Assembly (NCBI GenBank): GCA_035506715.1
Contig: DATJOW010000095.1
Coordinates: 5,393 to 69,392 of the forward strand
DNA from: Candidatus Acidiferrum sp.
Lineage (GTDB): Bacteria; Verrucomicrobiota; Verrucomicrobiia; Limisphaerales; UBA11358
Length of the DNA: 64,000 nucleotides
Direction of reading: 5' to 3'
Shown here: positions 2,692-36,419 of the stretch, piece after piece
Position numbering within the stretch: position 1 is the first letter of the stretch
Layout of the letters: each line of letters opens with the position of its first letter
The notes under the pieces: generated by a model
What the model was told of the DNA's origin: nothing
The model's database searches: none
Seen by the model: the letters and a program-made list of their open reading frames with translations, nothing else
Position numbers and translations under genes: made by a program

Positions 2692-3306
2692 ATGGAATCG
2701 AATTGGGCCGAAAGACACCTGCAAACCATCCGGACCTTGATGGAACGTTCCGCCATCTACCGCCGGGCGCTGGCGCCCATCATGCTCTTTGCCGGCGGGA
2801 TTGGGCTGCTGACGATGGTGCTGGGGTTGTGTTTTGACATCAATTCCAGCCGCGGTTTTTGCGGACTTTGGCTGGCGGCGGCGGTGGTAGCGGTGGCCGG
2901 GGCTTTCTGCCTTGCCCGGCGGCAGGCCATCCAGGATCGCGAGCCGTTCTGGTCGCCACCCACCCGGCGGGTCACCCAGGCGCTGGTGCCGCCCCTGCTC
3001 GCGGGATTCTGCCTGGGATTGCTCCTGCTGGTCTTCGGTCGCGGCATTGAGCTGGCAGTGGCACTGATCTGGATTTTGTTTTACGGTTGCGCGCTGCACG
3101 CCGCCGGGTTTTTCATGCCGCGGGGAATCAAATGGTTTGGCTGGATTTTTATGTTCAGTTCCTGCGCCATTTTTTGCGTTTTCCTGTTCCGTTGGGTCGA
3201 TTTTACCGTCAATCCGCATGAGTTGATGGGCCTGTTCTTCGGCATCCTGCATCTGATGTATGGCGCGTATTTGTATCTGACGGAGAAAGGAAAGAATGCG
3301 GTGTGA
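2692..3306 (+). CDS. Polytopic membrane protein, function unknown
   Basis: ORF 2650..3306, with the internal ATG at 2692 (MESNWAERHLQ) preferred. It has several long hydrophobic segments. Its stop overlaps the GTG start of the downstream regulator (GTGA at 3303-3306). Confidence 0.6.
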   Translation: MESNWAERHLQTIRTLMERSAIYRRALAPIMLFAGGIGLLTMVLGLCFDINSSRGFCGLWLAAAVVAVAGAFCLARRQAIQDREPFWSPPTRRVTQALVPPLLAGFCLGLLLLVFGRGIELAVALIWILFYGCALHAAGFFMPRGIKWFGWIFMFSSCAIFCVFLFRWVDFTVNPHELMGLFFGILHLMYGAYLYLTEKGKNAV

Positions 3307-14302: not shown

Positions 14303-14821
14303 ATGCGCGGACCGGATCTTGAACGGCTCTACGACGAGCACGCCCAGTCGCTTTACGCTTTTCTCCTGCATCTCACCCGCGACGAGGCCGATACCCGGGA
14401 TTTGCTCCAAGAGGTCTTCATTAAACTGGCCCGCCATCCGGAATGGTTGGACGGCGTCCGCGACGAGCGCGCGTTCCTTATCCGGCTGGCGCACAATGCA
14501 GCGATTGACCTCATGCGCCGGCGCGGCGTACGGGAGCGGGCCCGGGACAACTGCGCCAGAGAAACTTCTTCTCTCTTTGCCCCCGCCCCGGATCCGGACA
14601 CGGAAATCTTTCGCGAGGAACTGTCGCGGGCGCTGGCCGAACTGCCGCCGGAGCAACGGGCCGTGGTGCATTTGAAGTTGTGGGCCGGTCTGACCTTCGA
14701 GGAAATCGCCGACACCCAGGAGATTCCGCTCAACACGGCGGCCAGCCGGTACCGCTATGGTCTAGACAAATTGCGCGAGCGGCTGCGTCCTCTTTACGAA
14801 GAAATGAAGCAGGCAGAATGA
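14303..14821 (+). CDS. ECF-type RNA polymerase sigma factor
   Basis: Region 2 (DLLQEVFIKLA...FLIRLAHNAAIDLMRRR) and region 4 (LPPEQRAVVHLKLWAGLTFEEIADTQEIPLNTAASRYRYGLDKLR). Confidence 0.9.
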   Translation: MRGPDLERLYDEHAQSLYAFLLHLTRDEADTRDLLQEVFIKLARHPEWLDGVRDERAFLIRLAHNAAIDLMRRRGVRERARDNCARETSSLFAPAPDPDTEIFREELSRALAELPPEQRAVVHLKLWAGLTFEEIADTQEIPLNTAASRYRYGLDKLRERLRPLYEEMKQAE

Positions 14822-15252
14822 TGAATGAAGAAACGGAACCGTTTGAACGGCGCTTGAGCCGTCAGCCATTGCGGCAGATTCCCGCCGGCTGGCGCAAGGA
14901 AATCCTGGGCGAGGCGGACAAGGTAGGGACAGCGCGTCGCGCTGTCCGCGGACGCCGCAGCGCGGCGTCCCTACCCGACTGGATTTCAAATTTGCTGTGG
15001 CCTCATCCCGCCGCCTGGGCGGGGCTGGCAGCAGTTTGGCTTGTTGTACTTGCCGTGAACGTTTCGATCCGCGACCGCGCACCGGCGCTGGCGGAAAAAT
15101 TCACGCCGCCGCCGGAAGTAATGGTGGAACTGAAACGACAGCAACGGTTGCTGGCGGAGTTGATCGGACCGCGCGAGGCCCGTGATGCCGACCGCGCCAA
15201 ACCGTTGGTGCCGCGGCCGCGAACGGAGAGCGGCGAGTTTGTGGCGGTGTGA
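14818..15252 (+). CDS. Putative single-pass anti-sigma factor
   Basis: The ATG at 14818 overlaps the sigma stop (ATGA). One TM segment (AAWAGLAAVWLVVLAVNV). The call rests on position only; no conserved anti-sigma motif was recognised. Confidence 0.5.
   Translation: MMNEETEPFERRLSRQPLRQIPAGWRKEILGEADKVGTARRAVRGRRSAASLPDWISNLLWPHPAAWAGLAAVWLVVLAVNVSIRDRAPALAEKFTPPPEVMVELKRQQRLLAELIGPREARDADRAKPLVPRPRTESGEFVAV
14922..14975. repeat. REP-like nested palindrome (54 nt) inserted in frame in the anti-sigma gene
   Basis: Outer stem GGTAGGGAC/GTCCCTACC encloses two perfect hairpins: GACAGCGCG-t-CGCGCTGTC (its outer GAC is shared with the 3' end of the outer-stem arm) and GGACGCCGC-agc-GCGGCGTCC. It translates as VGTARRAVRGRRSAASLP. 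Confidence 0.75.
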
Positions 15253-15348: not shown

Positions 15349-17109
15349 ATGAATGAAGAACCCAAAAGCATCTGGAAAAAATCGTTGACCGGCTGGTGCA
15401 TCCTGTCCGTTGTCGCGTTGCTTCTGGCTTTCGCGGGATTTCTAGCGGCGCTGGCGAGCAGTCTATTTCATTTCGACAACAGCAAACTTTTCGGCCTGTC
15501 TTTTTTTGTCAACTGGCTGATTCTCACCATTGGCGCGGCAGCCACCTTTCTGGTGTTGATCCTGCTCTTCCGCTTCATCCGGTGGCTGTATTGTTGGCGT
15601 AACTTCAAGCGATTTCTTTTCGCGGTCGCGTGTCTGGCCACACTGATCGCGTTGTTCTACGCCGAGGAAGACTGGCGCGGCAAACATGCCTGGGAAACAT
15701 TCAAACGCGAGTGGGAGGCCAAAGGCGAACGTTTCGATCGCGCCAGCGTGGTTCCGCCGCCGGTGCCGGACGACCAGAATTTTGCGCTGACGCCGATTGT
15801 CTTTACCAGTTACGGCCAATTGCTGACGCGCGACGGGAAATTCATTCCCTGGGCTGAACGCGACACCAACTTCGTCAACCGGCTGCAAGTGAACATTGGT
15901 GGCCCCCAGCCCTGGCCGACCAATGGTGATTGGCGCCTGGCGCGCGTCAGCGATTTAAGCGCCTGGCAACAGTATTATCGGGCCCTGGCCGCCAAAACGA
16001 ATCAGTTCCCCGTCCCGCCCCAACCGGTATCGCCCGCCGCCGATGTCCTCTTCGCGTTGGGCAAGTACGATTCAACGATCGAGGAGCTGCGGCAAGCCGG
16101 CCAACTGCCTGATTCACGTTTTCCGCTGGAATATGACAAGGATGACCCGGCGGCGATGCTGTTGCCGCACCTAGCGCCGCTGAAAAATTGCGCCCAGGTT
16201 TTACAATTGCGCGCCTTGGCGGAATTGCAGAACGGCCAAAGCGACCGGGCGCTGGCCGACGTAAAACTCATTTTGCGCCTGGCGGATTCGCTCCGCTCGG
16301 AGCCCATTCTGATTTCGCAGCTGGTCCGCGCTGCACTGGTGAATCTCGCGCTCCAGCCGATCTGGGAGGGGCTCCGGCAACGCCAATGGTCGGACGCCCA
16401 ATTGATCGAACTGGGAAATGACCTGGCGAAGACAGATTTTTTGGCTGCCAGCGAACTTGCCTTGCGCGGAGAACGCATCTGGGGTGTTGAAATCATAGAA
16501 TATTTGCGACATTTGACTTACCGGGAAAGGCTGCGCACCCTTTCCGCTTTTGGCAGCAATCTCAAACTCGAGGACGAAATTTTCCTTTGTCTCGGCCCGG
16601 CTGGATGGTTTGACCAAAGCGAACTCCGAATTAGTCGTTTCCTTCTCCGGCACTATTCGCCGGTGGTAAATCTTGACCGGCAAATAGTTTCTCCTGTTGC
16701 TGTGCGAAACGCGGATGAGGCATTCGGCGCGGAAGTTGGCCATTCCGGCAATGGTAATTTTTTTGAGCGATTATTACTGTCGGCCGCGGGCAACGTAGTG
16801 GAGAAATTAGCCTGCGGGCAAAATGCGGTGAACCTGGCGCGTACGGCCTGTGCGTTGGAGCGTTACCGCCTCGCGCATGGCCAATATCCGGAATCGCTGG
16901 ACGCGCTGGTGCCGCAATTCATCGCCCAGCCGCTGCATGATGTCATCAACGGCCAACCGCTGCATTATCGACGCACGAATGATGGCCAATTCGTCCTTTA
17001 TTCCGTCGGCTGGAACGAGACGGATGACGGCGGGGAAGTCGGCTTCACCAAACAAGGCGGTCTGGACATCAGCACCGGTGACTGGGTCTGGCAGTATCCG
17101 CAGAAATAA
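15349..17109 (+). CDS. Membrane protein, unknown function, with a GspG-like C-terminal motif
   Basis: Three N-terminal TM helices. The C-terminus LHYRRTNDGQFVLYSVGWNETDDGGEV resembles the conserved C-terminal sheet of type II secretion pseudopilins. Confidence 0.5.
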   Translation: MNEEPKSIWKKSLTGWCILSVVALLLAFAGFLAALASSLFHFDNSKLFGLSFFVNWLILTIGAAATFLVLILLFRFIRWLYCWRNFKRFLFAVACLATLIALFYAEEDWRGKHAWETFKREWEAKGERFDRASVVPPPVPDDQNFALTPIVFTSYGQLLTRDGKFIPWAERDTNFVNRLQVNIGGPQPWPTNGDWRLARVSDLSAWQQYYRALAAKTNQFPVPPQPVSPAADVLFALGKYDSTIEELRQAGQLPDSRFPLEYDKDDPAAMLLPHLAPLKNCAQVLQLRALAELQNGQSDRALADVKLILRLADSLRSEPILISQLVRAALVNLALQPIWEGLRQRQWSDAQLIELGNDLAKTDFLAASELALRGERIWGVEIIEYLRHLTYRERLRTLSAFGSNLKLEDEIFLCLGPAGWFDQSELRISRFLLRHYSPVVNLDRQIVSPVAVRNADEAFGAEVGHSGNGNFFERLLLSAAGNVVEKLACGQNAVNLARTACALERYRLAHGQYPESLDALVPQFIAQPLHDVINGQPLHYRRTNDGQFVLYSVGWNETDDGGEVGFTKQGGLDISTGDWVWQYPQK

Positions 17110-17110
17110 A

Positions 17111-17245
17111 AGCTCCAAGCTCCAACATCCAAGCTCCAGAGAAATCTCAAGCCTCAAGCGCCAAACCAAAACCATCATCGCCGCGTTTTCTTGTTTGGCT
17201 GTTGGAATTTCTCTGGAGCTTGGTGCCTGGAATTTGGGGGTTTTT
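17111..17245. repeat. Long imperfect inverted repeat built from period-7 units
   Basis: Left arm: AGCTCCA AGCTCCA ACATCCA AGCTCCA GAGAAAT CTCAAGC CTCAAGC GCCAAAC. The 17-nt core CCAAGCTCCAGAGAAAT (17129-17145) is perfectly complementary to 17207-17223. The element ends in GGGGGTTTTT. Confidence 0.75.
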
Positions 17246-18659: not shown

Positions 18660-18690
18660 ACCGCCGGCCGAGAGACTCTCGGCCGGCGGT
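18660..18690. terminator. Perfect GC-rich hairpin between convergent genes (intrinsic terminator for pilC, possibly bidirectional)
   Basis: ACCGCCGGCCGAGAG-A-CTCTCGGCCGGCGGT. On the minus strand it is followed by TTTTCTGTTT. Confidence 0.7.
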
Positions 18691-21620: not shown

Positions 21621-21715
21621 ATTTGCATTTACGATTTACGATTTACGATTTACGATTGCTCCGGGGCTCCGAAACGGTGGGAAAATCACAAATCATCAAT
21701 CGTAAATCATAAATG
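21621..21715 (+). repeat. Heptamer-array element: (ATTTACG)x4-ATTGC, 22-nt spacer, inverted array GGAAAAT CACAAAT CATCAAT CGTAAAT CATAAAT
   Basis: Read directly. The last unit plus G forms TAAATG, which contains the metF start (21713). It is homologous to the element at 36343..36419. Confidence 0.8.
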
Positions 21716-22606
21716 CCCGTTCATTTCATTCGCGACATTTACGCAGCCAAAGGGGCGGCCAAACAGCCGGTCATCTCTTTTGAATTTTTCCCTCCTAAAA
21801 CAGAGGAAGGGGACCGCGCCCTGCTGGAACGCCAGGTCCCGGCCCTGTTGGCGGCCCGGCCGGATTTTTGTTCCGTCACCTACGGCGCCGGCGGCAGCAC
21901 GCGCGACAAGACGCTGATGATTGTGGACCGCATTCAGCGGCAATACGGGTTGACGACGCTGGCGCATCTGACCTGTGTGGGCCACACCCGGGCGCAGGTG
22001 CAGGAGCTCCTGGAGAAAATCCGTGGGTTGGGCTGTAAAAATATCCTGGCCTTGCGCGGCGATCCTCCGGCGGGCGGCGTTTTTCAGCCGGCTCCCGGCG
22101 GTTTCGAATTCGCCGGGCAACTGGTCCGGCTCATCCGTGACGCGGGTGACTTCTCCATCGGGGTCGCCGGCTTTCCCGAGGGGCACCTTGCCTGTCCGGA
22201 CGGCAAGCAGGCCGACTGGTGGCACTTGCGCGAAAAGGTGGAGGCTGGCGCGGACTTTGTGCTGACCCAGCTGTTCTTTGACAACGCGGATTATTTTGAA
22301 TTTCGGGAGTACGTTGGCGGCCGCCTGGGGGTCCGCGTGCCATTGGTCCCGGGAATTGTGCCCATCCTGAGCGCCGGCCAAATCACAAAATTCATCCAGG
22401 TCTGTGGCGCCAAAATCCCGCCGCCGCTGCGCACCCGGCTTGATCAATTGGCGGAGGACGATGAGGCCGCCGCTGAATTTGGCATCGAGTACGCCACCCG
22501 CCAGTGCCAGGATTTGTTGCGGGCAGGCGTGCCCGGGTTGCATTTTTACACGCTGAACAAATCGCGGTCCACCGTCCAGGTGCTGAAGAACCTCGGTCTG
22601 GCCTGA
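21713..22606 (+). CDS. metF: 5,10-methylenetetrahydrofolate reductase MetF
   Basis: ISFEFFPPKT, VTYGAGGSTR, LTCVGH, TQLFFD motifs. 297 aa. Confidence 0.9.
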   Translation: MPVHFIRDIYAAKGAAKQPVISFEFFPPKTEEGDRALLERQVPALLAARPDFCSVTYGAGGSTRDKTLMIVDRIQRQYGLTTLAHLTCVGHTRAQVQELLEKIRGLGCKNILALRGDPPAGGVFQPAPGGFEFAGQLVRLIRDAGDFSIGVAGFPEGHLACPDGKQADWWHLREKVEAGADFVLTQLFFDNADYFEFREYVGGRLGVRVPLVPGIVPILSAGQITKFIQVCGAKIPPPLRTRLDQLAEDDEAAAEFGIEYATRQCQDLLRAGVPGLHFYTLNKSRSTVQVLKNLGLA

Positions 22607-32783: not shown

Positions 32784-32930
32784 AGACTAAAAGTGACGCA
32801 TTCGCCCCGGTTGCCAAGTTCAAAATGCCGCCCCAACGCGAAGAGGCTTTGTCCGGATGGATTTGCATGGTAAATTGCACGGGCCGAAATGAGCGTCACC
32901 ATCCAGTCTGAACCGGCAGGAGAGCAAACT

Positions 32931-32958
32931 CCGCCATCCGCCATCCGCCATCCGCCCT
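32931..32958. repeat. Heptamer tandem array (CCGCCAT)x3 + CCGCCCT inside the U32 N-terminus
   Basis: Read directly. Translates as PPSAIRHPP. Confidence 0.7.
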
Positions 32959-33822
32959 TGCCGGAGTTGCTCGCGCCCGCTGGGGACTGGGATTGCGTAC
33001 GCGCCGCGGTCGAGAACGGCGCCGATGCGATTTATTTCGGCCTCGAAAAATTCAACGCCCGGATGCGGGCGCAGAACTTCACCTCGGCCGATCTGCCTTG
33101 CTTGATGGATTTTCTGCACCGGCGCGGCGTGCGCGGCTATGTCACTCTCAACACGCTGGTTTTTGAGCAGGAACTCGCCGACGCCGAAAAATATTTGCGC
33201 ACGATGATCGCCGCCGGGGTGGACGCCGTCGTGGTCCAGGATGTGGGCATCTGCCGGCTGATCCGGCGGCTTTCGCCCGATTTACCGATTCACGCTTCGA
33301 CCCAGATGACCATCACCAGCGCCGCCGGCGTGGATTTCGCCCGCGACCTCGGCTGCAGCCTGGTCGTGCTCGCCCGCGAATGTTCCATCAAGGAAATCGA
33401 GAAAATCCAAGCCATACAAGGCAAGGCGGGCCGTCTCTTGCCCGCCGTATCCTCCTTTACCAACGACGGCGCGATAGCGACATCGCGCCCCACCATTCTC
33501 CCCCTGGAAGTTTTTGTCCACGGCGCTCTCTGCGTTGCTTACTCGGGCCAATGCCTGACCAGCGAGGCGCTCGGTGGTCGCTCGGCCAACCGCGGCGAAT
33601 GCGCCCAAGCCTGCCGCATGCCTTACGAACTCCTGTCCGACGGGCAACTCGTGCCGCTGGGTGACCGGAAATATCTGCTGAGCCCGCAGGACCTGGCCGG
33701 GCTGGACGTGTTGCCGGAATTGATTCGAGCGGGCGTGGCCTCGCTGAAAATCGAGGGCCGGCTCAAATCCCCCGAATACGTGGCGAATATCACGCGGATT
33801 TACCGCCAAGCGCTGGATAATT

Positions 33823-33890
33823 GCGGAATGCAGAATGCGGAATGTGAAATGCTATCTGCCTCAGCCAGTCCGAAATCCGAAATCCGAAAT
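33823..33890. repeat. Paired heptamer arrays GCGGAAT GCAGAAT GCGGAAT GTGAAAT / 19-nt spacer / (CCGAAAT)x3, at the U32 frameshift
   Basis: Read directly. Total length is 68 nt, which is not a multiple of 3. The left arm has 4 units and the right arm 3. Confidence 0.8.
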
Positions 33891-34649
33891 ATGAGATGGA
33901 GATGGCTTTCTCCCGCGGCTTGCACACCGGCTGGTTCGGCGGCACCAACAATCAGCAACTCGTACACGCCCGCTTCGGAAAAAAACGCGGGGTCTATCTC
34001 GGTGAAGTGAAAAAGGTTTTGCGCGACGCGGTTGTGGTCAAACTGAAAGGCCCGTTGAAGCCGGGCGACGGCGTGGTGTTTGACGCCGGCAAGCCGGCGG
34101 AACCCGAGGAGGGCGGGCGGGTTTACGAAATCCGAAAGGCAAGGCGCGGTGTCCCTACCGCGCCGAAAGCACGGCTCGCTACGGAGGGCGAGCCCCACCA
34201 GGTCGAACTCCATTTCGGCCGCGGCGACATCCATTTCGCGCGCGTTCACGTCGGCGACAAACTGTGGAAGACCAGCGACCCGGAACTGGACCGACGCCTC
34301 CGCCAAAGCTTCGCCGGTGCTACGCCCAGATTCCAGCGACCGATTGAAATCGAAGTGCACGGCATCGCCGGCAAGGCGCTGACCCTGATTGCCCATGATG
34401 AATTCGGCAACATTGCCAAAGTGGAATCATCCATGCCGCTGGCCCGGGCGGATAAACATCCGCTCACGACGGACCGTTTGCGCGAACAATTGGGCCGGTT
34501 GGGGGGCACGCCGTTCCGGCTCGGTGGGTTAAAAAACCTTTTGTCGGGTGACGTGCTGCTGCCGGTCAGCGAGCTGAATCGCTTGCGCCGCGAAATCGTC
34601 GGCGAACTGGAAAGGCGGCGCACCCAGCCTAAGCGTTGGACGCTTTCTG

Positions 34650-34733
34650 ATTGCCGGTTGCCGGTTGCCGATTGCCGATTGAGCGACGATGCGGGCGCAG
34701 CCAAAAATCCGCAATCCGCAATCCGCAATCCGC
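34650..34733. repeat. Paired inverted heptamer arrays ATTGCCG GTTGCCG GTTGCCG ATTGCCG / 28-nt spacer / (AATCCGC)x4, in frame inside the U32 gene
   Basis: 84 nt = 28 codons. Translates as DCRLPVADCRLSDDAGAAKNPQSAIRNPQ. The arms are complementary at 5-6 of 7 positions per unit. Confidence 0.8.
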
Positions 34734-34873
34734 AATTGATTGTTCTGGTCCGCAACCTGCCCCAACTCGAAGCCGCGCTGAAATGCGGGGTGACAACCGT
34801 CTATTGCGAATTTGAAGACCCCAAGAAATACCGCGACGCGGTCACGCTGTTCCACGCGGCCTTCGATCGCCAA

Positions 34874-34930
34874 GGTAGGCCGGGCGGTCCTCTGCCCGCC
34901 GGCGGCGCGCACGGAGTGACGCGCCCTACC
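34874..34930. repeat. REP-like nested palindrome (57 nt), in frame inside the U32 gene
   Basis: Outer stem GGTAGG/CCTACC. Inner hairpin GGCGCG-cacggagtga-CGCGCC plus an imperfect CCGGGCGG/CCCGCCGG hairpin. Translates as GRPGGPLPAGGAHGVTRPT. Confidence 0.65.
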
Positions 34931-35627
34931 ATCTGGGTTGCGCCTCCAAGAATTTTCAAGCCGGGCGAGGACTGGACGCTGGAACAGGTGCGCTCCGGCA
35001 ACGCCGATGGTTATTTAATCCGCAATTACGATCACTTGAAATTCTTCGCGAACGACCGGCGCGTCGGTGATTACTCGCTCAACATCGCCAACCGGCTGGC
35101 GGCGGATTATTTCAAGAACCCATGCGGCCTGGAGCGGGTGACGGCGAGCTACGATTTGAATTTCCAGCAGCTCGAAGCGTTGTTGACCGCCGCGCCGCCC
35201 GAGTGGTTCGAGGTGACCATCCACCAGCACATGCCGATGTTTCACATGGAGCATTGCGTGTTCTGCGCGTTCCTTTCCACCGGCACGGACTTCCGGAACT
35301 GCGGCCGCCCCTGCGACGTGCACGACGTGAAGCTGCGCGACCGCATGGGCGCGGAGCATCCGGTGAAGGCCGACGTCGGCTGCCGCAACACGGTGTTCAA
35401 CGCGCTGGCCCAGACCGGCGCGGAATATGTGTCGCGGATGATCGAACTGGGCGTGCGACATTTCCGCGTGGAATTCCTCAACGAAGCGCCGGAACAGGTG
35501 ATGCAAACCATTGCCAAGTATCATCAGCTATTGCGCGGTGAAATCACCGGCACGCAGCTCTGGCGCAAATTGAAACTGTTCAACCAGCTCGGCGTCACCC
35601 GGGGGCAAATCGGGAAGTAGAACAGGC

Positions 35628-36342: not shown

Positions 36343-36419
36343 ATTTACGATTTACGATTTACAATTTACGATTGCAACTCAATTTCAACGCCGCCCGTGT
36401 CAAGCGTCAATCGTAAATG
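36343..36419 (+). repeat. Second copy of the heptamer-array element: ATTTACG ATTTACG ATTTACA ATTTACG ATTGC, spacer, CGTCAAT CGTAAAT
   Basis: Shares (ATTTACG)n-ATTGC and the 12-mer TCAATCGTAAAT with 21621..21715. Its TAAATG contains the start of the AddA-like gene (36417). The left end begins 4 nt from the radC start codon. Confidence 0.8.

Follow-up and report, generated by a model that had tools for sequence, protein, structure and literature searches.

Repetitive extragenic palindromes (REPs) are small non-autonomous repeats that are associated with, and probably mobilized in trans by, REP-associated tyrosine transposases (RAYTs). These transposases are HUH/Y1 enzymes of the IS200/IS605 type and act on single-stranded hairpin DNA that bears a GTAG tag. 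Here we examine a 54-nt nested palindrome at positions 14922 to 14975 of a 64-kb stretch of contig DATJOW010000095.1 (the whole stretch is called the window below), where it lies within a gene for a putative anti-sigma factor. The element is very probably a RAYT-associated GTAG REP dimer, with its two units arranged head to head (HH), that resides in a permissive linker-coding segment of this gene.

The closest described repeats are the GTAG REPs of the Planctomycetes-Verrucomicrobia-Chlamydiae (PVC) superphylum, in which a 6- to 13-bp GC-rich stem, closed by a short loop, bears a GTAG tag at one end (Di Nocera, De Gregorio and Rocco 2013, BMC Genomics 14:522; PMC3733652). The verrucomicrobium Opitutus terrae is "highly enriched" in them. 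Its GTAG-17 REPs form HH dimers with 1- to 2-bp spacers, HH dimers predominate, and many copies are intragenic, the dimers encoding ~20 to 30 residues with VG... and ...P(T/Y) ends. Subfamilies differ by complementary stem changes, the tag degenerates to GYAG and GTGG, and the repeats are associated with RAYTs (PMC3733652). Our element shares with these REPs its GTAG tag, short GC-rich stem-loops, HH order, and 2-nt spacer, and repeats of this kind have been reported before, in Verrucomicrobia too. The match rests on anatomy rather than on the GTAG-17 to GTAG-20 stem consensus sequences, and the genomes concerned are Limisphaerales-type metagenome-assembled genomes (MAGs), not Opitutus.

Three other classes of repeat can be compared with it. 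As far as the accounts cited in PMC3733652 go (Bertels and Rainey 2011; Nunvar et al. 2010), the REPINs of REP-RAYT systems consist of two inverted REPs, and the single-copy RAYT is flanked by REPs. Likenesses here are the two inverted REPs, a RAYT flanked by the units in relatives, and a population of near-identical dimers in one related MAG. In contrast to a REPIN, the window copy is a heterodimer that forms a three-way junction, has a 2-nt spacer, and sits inside a gene; homodimers with a 16-nt spacer are present in the related MAG. A classic REPIN was rejected, as the two arms are 78% complementary and form two separate hairpins with a 5-bp outer stem. Rickettsia palindromic elements (RPEs), to the extent that the work cited in PMC3733652 describes them (Ogata et al. 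2000), lie in frame in protein-coding genes, RPE-1 being ~100 to 150 bp long and RPE-4 and RPE-6 being CGTC tagged. The resemblance to RPEs is functional only, in that functional genes accommodate in-frame palindromic repeats, probably at positions that correspond to loops or linkers. RPE-1 is longer and has no GTAG tag, RPE-4 and RPE-6 are short and carry the CGTC tag, and both phylum and sequences are unrelated; the 54-nt length and the GTAG tag led us to reject RPE membership. We know of no dedicated transposase for RPEs. MITEs, or miniature inverted-repeat transposable elements, are likewise small, non-autonomous, palindromic, and dispersed, but they measure 70 to 300 bp, have 15- to 30-bp terminal inverted repeats derived from insertion sequences, and usually produce target-site duplications, whereas this element is 54 nt long and associated with a Y1/HUH enzyme. 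Its outer complementarity is only 5 to 9 bp and its junctions (AAG/GGTAGG and CCTACC/CGA) show no direct repeat or target-site duplication, and a MITE was rejected on these grounds.

Sequence, folds, pattern statistics, and family membership together define the element. Its 54 bases, GGTAGG-GACAGCGCG-t-CGCGCTGTC-CGC-GGACGCCGC-agc-GCGGCGTCC-CTACC, are exactly those that an initial annotation of this DNA had written out as a nested palindrome. The tag GGTAGG (14922 to 14927) runs into hairpin 1, GGACAGCGCG-t-CGCGCTGTCC (14927 to 14947), which is followed by the spacer GC (14948 to 14949), hairpin 2, GGACGCCGC-agc-GCGGCGTCC (14950 to 14970), and CTACC (14971 to 14975). The stems of hairpins 1 and 2 are 10 and 9 bp long, and their loops are 1 and 3 nt. 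As each half consists of a GTAG tag and a GC-rich stem-loop, and the halves are inverted, the whole is an HH dimer of GTAG-type REPs with the tags outside. Unit A (14922 to 14947), on the plus strand, is GGTAGG plus hairpin 1; unit B (14950 to 14975), which has its tag on the minus strand, is GGTAGG plus GGACGCCGC-gct-GCGGCGTCC.

Single-stranded DNA of the element is predicted to fold at -24.7 kcal/mol (z = -5.8), a value matched by none of 200 shuffles, and the minus strand folds equally strongly; the RNA folds at -39.8 kcal/mol (z = -6.0), so that folding of both nucleic acids sets the element apart from shuffled sequence. The three-way junction, put forward earlier as a potential, is the minimum-energy DNA structure. 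The 9-bp outer stem proposed along with it is one of two alternative GGGAC pairings, but the minimum-energy fold has a 5-bp outer stem and two 9-bp hairpins. No match to Rfam at gathering thresholds was found in the whole window, and a scan around the element revealed no terminator-like site, promoter, or T-run tail; an intrinsic terminator or known RNA family was thus rejected.

The position of the tag beside a hairpin is not due to chance. We examined 198 kb of unselected sequence, made up of the window and seven orthologous loci, for perfect GC-rich hairpins whose stems measure 8 bp or more. There are 47 such hairpins, and GTAGG abuts 14 of their 94 flanks versus 0.15 expected. Within the window, GGTAGG-N25-55-CCTACC occurs twice (at 14922 and 34874) versus 0.00 expected from 100 shuffles. 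Intergenic REP copies were found in related loci, here given L numbers: L002 (10450 to 10527), L003 (2604 to 2685 and 17174 to 17227), and L004 (1917 to 1945), where the unit GGTAGGGACAGCGC-ccc-GCGCTGTCC (1917 to 1943) is almost the same as the window's unit A.

When one genome per species was searched with the pattern GGTAGGGACRSCBC-N1-5-GVGSYGTCC, at least 120 stretches matched, and nearly all of the matches listed came from PVC genomes (Verrucomicrobiota, Lentisphaerae, and Kiritimatiellae). In the MAG DATKNZ01, seven contigs together bear 17 or more near-identical units, most of them in HH homodimers whose spacer is 16 nt. Across all loci examined, HH dimers outnumber tail-to-tail (TT) dimers by 84 to 9, spacer lengths show peaks at 0, 2, and 16 nt, and the commonest HH length is 54 nt, canonical dimers being 52, 54, or 68 nt long. 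Orthologous copies show the tag variants GGCAGG and GGTGGG.

The initial annotation had proposed looking for a RAYT-like transposase, and the outcome was divided: such genes lie beside the same units in five related MAG loci, but neither the window nor its orthologous loci yielded one by motif search or tblastn. Besides these two methods, we used the NCBIfam profile NF047646 (REP-associated tyrosine transposase; cutoff, 80 bits). The five loci (L117, L047, L126, L074, and L033) are among the listed matches of the pattern scan. The open reading frames (ORFs) of L117, L047, and L126 score 104.8, 105, and 83.6 bits, respectively, with weak matches to Pfam Y1_Tnp, and the RAYT-like genes of L074 and L033, detected by tblastn only, adjoin GTAG REP units. 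The same GGTAGGGAC-hairpin units directly adjoin all five genes and bracket those of L117, L047, and L126 on both sides. The L117 gene is flanked on both sides by a 26-nt unit, GGACGCCGCAGCGCGGCGTCCCTACC, that matches, base for base, hairpin 2 and its tag in the window element.

The host ORF (14818 to 15252, plus strand) encodes 144 residues. Its ATG overlaps the stop codon of an extracytoplasmic function (ECF) sigma factor gene (ATGA; 14303 to 14821, plus strand; Pfam Sigma70_r2, Sigma70_r4_2, and Sigma70_ECF). The ORF matched no Pfam family, and its putative anti-sigma role is therefore drawn from its position after the sigma gene and from a single hydrophobic helix that comes after the element. 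In agreement with the initial annotation, the ORF reads through the element in frame, as VGTARRAVRGRRSAASLP. These 18 residues (36 to 53 of the protein), six of which are Arg, directly precede the helix and fall in a hypervariable linker between it and a conserved N-terminal region. The ORF stays open because the net length is 18 codons and because the frame used (G GTA GGG ... C CTA CC) avoids the TAG of the tag. This TAG closes one frame per strand, which accounts for the recurrent VG...LP and GR...PT ends of REP-encoded peptides.

Other members of the family also lie inside genes. Hosts confirmed by Pfam include UvrA, with two inserts (L032), leucyl-tRNA synthetase (L038), glycerate kinase (L068), and a tetratricopeptide repeat (TPR) protein (L080); a UvrA with two inserts is a further likeness to the GTAG REPs of PMC3733652. 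The claim that the family colonizes coding sequence is borne out by these members, but the repeats are mainly intergenic: ~36 of 183 elements (~20%) lie within long ORFs by a stop-to-stop heuristic, and ~80% lie outside. It had also been claimed that such elements are tolerated in genes only at lengths that are multiples of 3. This rule follows from logic; by core length modulo 3 (0, 1, and 2), intragenic HH dimers number 4, 6, and 4 versus 28, 23, and 19 for the others, and the two groups are not told apart, although the inserted length with junction bases may differ from the core length. In L080, two paralogous TPR-protein genes on one contig have a 68-nt REP homodimer apiece in corresponding places (565 to 630 and 3089 to 3154), read as GRDASPRRPQ.PE.G.LGEASLP; either the gene was duplicated with the homodimer already in it or insertion struck this site on two occasions. 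The central proposal of the initial annotation, a REP-like mobile palindromic family that also occurs in frame inside genes, is upheld by the tag and hairpin anatomy, the dispersed copies, and the intragenic members.

The host protein has 683 homologues of similar length, and its hypervariable stretch lies between EEIL.AA and LWPHP. Among 79 orthologous linkers recovered, 12 contain the same dimer (REP1), four (L145, L153, L173, and L184) contain a different dimer with GGAG-type tags (REP2), and the remainder hold other repeat-derived filler, largely heptamer-coded and in many cases basic. Eleven orthologues, 44 to 66% identical in amino acids to the window protein, have the same dimer, with its palindromic DNA, at the same linker site. 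This is the opposite of what had been named as evidence against a mobile palindrome, namely, orthologues with the same peptide but no palindromic DNA. The alignment was also expected to confirm an insertion, but the dimer is present in eleven orthologues and no linker is cleanly empty. The element at this site cannot be called a recent insertion or one peculiar to a single lineage. Just 3' of the REP site, L001, L002, L004, L005, L007, and others have a (TCTCAAC)x4 heptamer array read as LSTLNSQLST; the window (14976 to 15000) and L003 lack three of these units, an in-frame copy-number change of 21 nt, or seven codons.

The element is more conserved than the host gene around it. The element averages 88.6% pairwise identity versus 76.2% for 285 nt of flanks, and the element has the higher value in 54 of 55 pairs; in L129 and L134, the elements are identical and the flanks are 70% identical. 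In a neighbor-joining tree of 792 columns (sigma factor, anti-sigma flanks, and downstream protein; 100 bootstraps), several well-supported sister pairs differ in linker state (L006/L155, 97%; L004/L129, 97%; L007/L130, 99%; L138/L145, 100%; and L136/L173, 90%), which identifies the linker as a hotspot of turnover. Retention of one dimer at an orthologous site across genes 44 to 66% identical, conservation above that of the host gene, and the turnover of several repeat types at one linker all go beyond what PMC3733652 describes. RAYT action, gene conversion from other REPs, and interlineage recombination are each possible routes by which copies reached the linker.

It is possible, though on the whole doubtful, that the dimer is an old, immobile relic and that homologous recombination or gene conversion of anti-sigma segments, among related lineages and with REP copies elsewhere in the genome, rather than repeated RAYT insertion, produced both its patchiness and its conservation. 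The identity of the L129 and L134 elements across divergent flanks fits this account. So does the position of L129 and L130, whose anti-sigma flanks are 93% identical and whose linkers are nearly the same, but whose tree partners differ (L004, 97%, and L007, 99%, respectively). This conflict suggests recombination of the anti-sigma segment between lineages or, alternatively, chimeric contigs, and chimeric metagenome contigs could mimic a recombination signal. A relic would leave unexplained the REP2 dimers found at the same site in four orthologues and the recurrence of the dimer's own units in unrelated intergenic regions and around RAYT genes. Recombination complements the identification of the element as a REP and does not replace it.

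The pattern of substitution indicates what is being maintained. Among nine distinct orthologous REP1 copies, 95.7% of cells pair, a level reached in 0 of 500 shuffles and compared with 41 to 50% in slid controls. Three base pairs, one per helix, have changed on both sides. The double change in hairpin 2 keeps the pairing while turning RRSAAS into RLGEAS in the peptide, from which it follows that the nucleic-acid palindrome, not the peptide, is maintained.

These compensatory pairs, the conservation of the element above its coding flanks, and the very stable RNA structure might be taken to mean that the sigma/anti-sigma transcript has in this palindrome a dedicated cis-regulatory structure, such as an mRNA stabilizer or a translation brake governing the ratio of sigma to anti-sigma, which selection maintains in the operon and to which the REP likeness is secondary; REPs can indeed stabilize upstream mRNA in operons. 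We consider this decidedly unlikely. The dimer occupies only 12 of 79 orthologous linkers and is missing from sister lineages, its units are also found at many unrelated loci and on the flanks of RAYT genes, and there is neither an Rfam match nor a terminator tail. In addition, sense-strand G.U cells (7) are not above A.C-type mismatches (~5) in the REP1 copies, so that no RNA-specific signature is apparent.

Template switching can create and repair perfect hairpins, and the perfecting of a quasi-palindrome within a low-complexity linker, with no transposition, would yield paired double changes like those seen; the linker is, moreover, built of repeats in every orthologue. Such a local origin is very improbable, as identical 26-nt units, GGTAGG tag included, are found at unrelated loci of other genomes and beside RAYT genes, and local hairpin formation does not predict the enrichment of GTAGG beside hairpins. 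That the Arg-rich peptide itself was selected under the positive-inside rule, with the palindrome incidental, is hardly credible: there are six Arg residues directly before a hydrophobic helix and many alternative fillers are basic too, but the paired changes alter residues radically, the same DNA is noncoding elsewhere, and the linker peptide is otherwise hypervariable. An assembly artifact was rejected on the recurrence of the element in many independent assemblies.

Several observations weigh against a RAYT-associated REP dimer that was inserted here, and they should be set beside those that favor it. The window and its orthologous loci lack a RAYT gene, and to our knowledge RAYT-driven transposition of a REP has never been directly observed in any organism. 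The window has only two good and two decayed dimers, all within genes, so the evidence for a high copy number comes from related genomes. Because no clean empty site exists among the recovered linkers, a discrete insertion event cannot be reconstructed, and the 63-nt linker of L129 versus the 48-nt linker of its sister L004 implies replacement rather than a clean 54-nt insertion. The unequal arms make the element a heterodimer and not the classic long-hairpin REPIN. Finally, the three compensatory changes may be swaps between existing REP subfamilies instead of evolution in place.

With these points in mind, the REP identification leads to the following scenario. A REP copy would have landed, or have been copied, into the segment where the anti-sigma gene codes for a permissive cytoplasmic linker beside the membrane helix. 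The gene would have stayed open by virtue of the 18-codon length and TAG-free frame, acquiring an Arg-rich stretch of 18 residues. The linker is a recurrent site of landing and replacement, which holds this dimer in some related lineages and in others a second kind of REP dimer or filler made of heptamer repeats. A RAYT presumably moved the element, which is likely to be near-neutral for the protein, and the RNA structure of -40 kcal/mol may affect the sigma/anti-sigma transcript.

The second element of the window (34874 to 34930) is read in frame as GRPGGPLPAGGAHGVTRPT in a U32 peptidase gene. Described earlier as having the same architecture, it is indeed a GTAG REP HH dimer, 57 nt long and of a different subfamily, with GGTAGG/CCTACC ends, two imperfect hairpins, and a weaker fold (DNA z = -1.9 on the plus strand and -3.3 on the minus strand; RNA z = -1.3). 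Its units recur intergenically in L021, L112 (as a dimer), and L015. Two decayed dimers lie in the same gene. The one at 33420 to 33494 belongs to the subfamily of the second element and has mutated tags (GGCAAG/CCCACC) with both hairpins kept; it is read as GKAGRLLPAVSSFTNDGAIATSRPT, where U32 orthologues read QGRAGSPLPAAELPANDGAQGTARPT. The one at 34138 to 34199 also has GGCAAG ... CCCACC ends and two hairpins and is read as KARRGVPTAPKARLATEGEPH, where orthologues read KVGRGVPTAPKARLAAESKP.

U32 homologues are single proteins of 863 to 1039 residues, 73 to 81% identical to the window protein. An alignment of 121 homologues has five hypervariable sites at which different orthologues carry different repeat-derived peptides in discrete length steps; the peptide class of the second element, GRAGSPLPA..GAHGVTRPT, appears at two separate sites among the orthologues. 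In the window, the five sites are near 33420, 33830, 34140, 34650, and 34880, and the fillers include VGQASSLS..DRQDACPT, SEGRVPRAP..PRGTRPSE, SRGNEAHS..SLLTSAAT, WRVASG..SPVTRH, and PSTLNPQPS.

In-frame heptamer arrays, arranged as imperfect inverted repeats, are found in the U32 gene at 34648 to 34740 and 33815 to 33895. One, (GATTGCC)x4 ... (AATCCGC)x4, is read as DCRLPVADCRL..QSAIRNPQ, and another is (GAATGCN)x4 ... (CCGAAAT)x3. These arrays are a second repeat class that colonizes the same hypervariable sites as the REP dimers. The U32 gene is split by a frameshift (33815 to 33900; ORFs 32889 to 34010 and 33896 to 35620) exactly at a heptamer tract, whereas 120 of 120 close homologues are single proteins of ~900 residues. 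The window tract (33870 to 33896) reads AGTCCGA-AATCCGA-AATCCGA, and since the orthologous peptide NPKSEIRNPKYE takes four heptamers, one 7-nt unit is missing. The split reflects either a pseudogene or slippage variant or a collapse in the assembly. Intergenic tandem-heptamer hairpins at 21625 to 21716, 36343 to 36418, and 17108 to 17244, with (ATTTACG)n facing its complement or AGCTCCA-like units, probably belong to the same repeat class. A perfect 15-bp palindrome without a GTAG tag, ACCGCCGGCCGAGAG-a-CTCTCGGCCGGCGGT, is located at 18660 to 18690. Similar AAACCGCCGG...CCGGCGGTTT hairpins lie just outside the T2SSF gene in L001 and L004, and the L001 copy is followed by a T-run, which gives it a terminator-like look.

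NCBI labels the source MAG, whose window proteins include HTY87450.1 and HTY87451.1, "Candidatus Acidoferrum sp." (Acidobacteriota). This label looks wrong, as every homologue of the anti-sigma, U32, and neighboring-gene products belongs to Limisphaerales or Verrucomicrobiota. These REPs are abundant in another MAG, SMAG_U14751, to which NCBI gives an identical label.

A bolder extension of these results, which we regard as unlikely, is that short, permissive linkers in conserved proteins of Limisphaerales-type genomes act as recurrent landing pads for REP dimers and heptamer-repeat hairpins, which are swapped by RAYT action and recombination while the palindromes are selected for nucleic-acid structure. 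If this were true, coding sequence would be a reservoir and regulatory site for replicators, beyond mere tolerance, with the anti-sigma linker beside its helix and the five U32 sites as examples, and selection might tune transcript stability or translation.

Taken together, an odd nested palindrome in a gene turns out to be an ordinary member of a published repeat class, and recognizing it as such guards against misreading it as a new regulatory RNA or mobile element. The modest novelty lies in a record of GTAG REP dimers, with their RAYTs, from a verrucomicrobial lineage that is uncultured; in an element that, at a single orthologous site in coding sequence, exceeds its host in conservation (88.6% versus 76.2%) while other sequence occupies the site in sister lineages; and in linker hotspots at which several repeat families alternate. 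These loci offer a natural system for studying the gain, replacement, and homogenization of REPs and any effects of in-frame REPs on operon expression.

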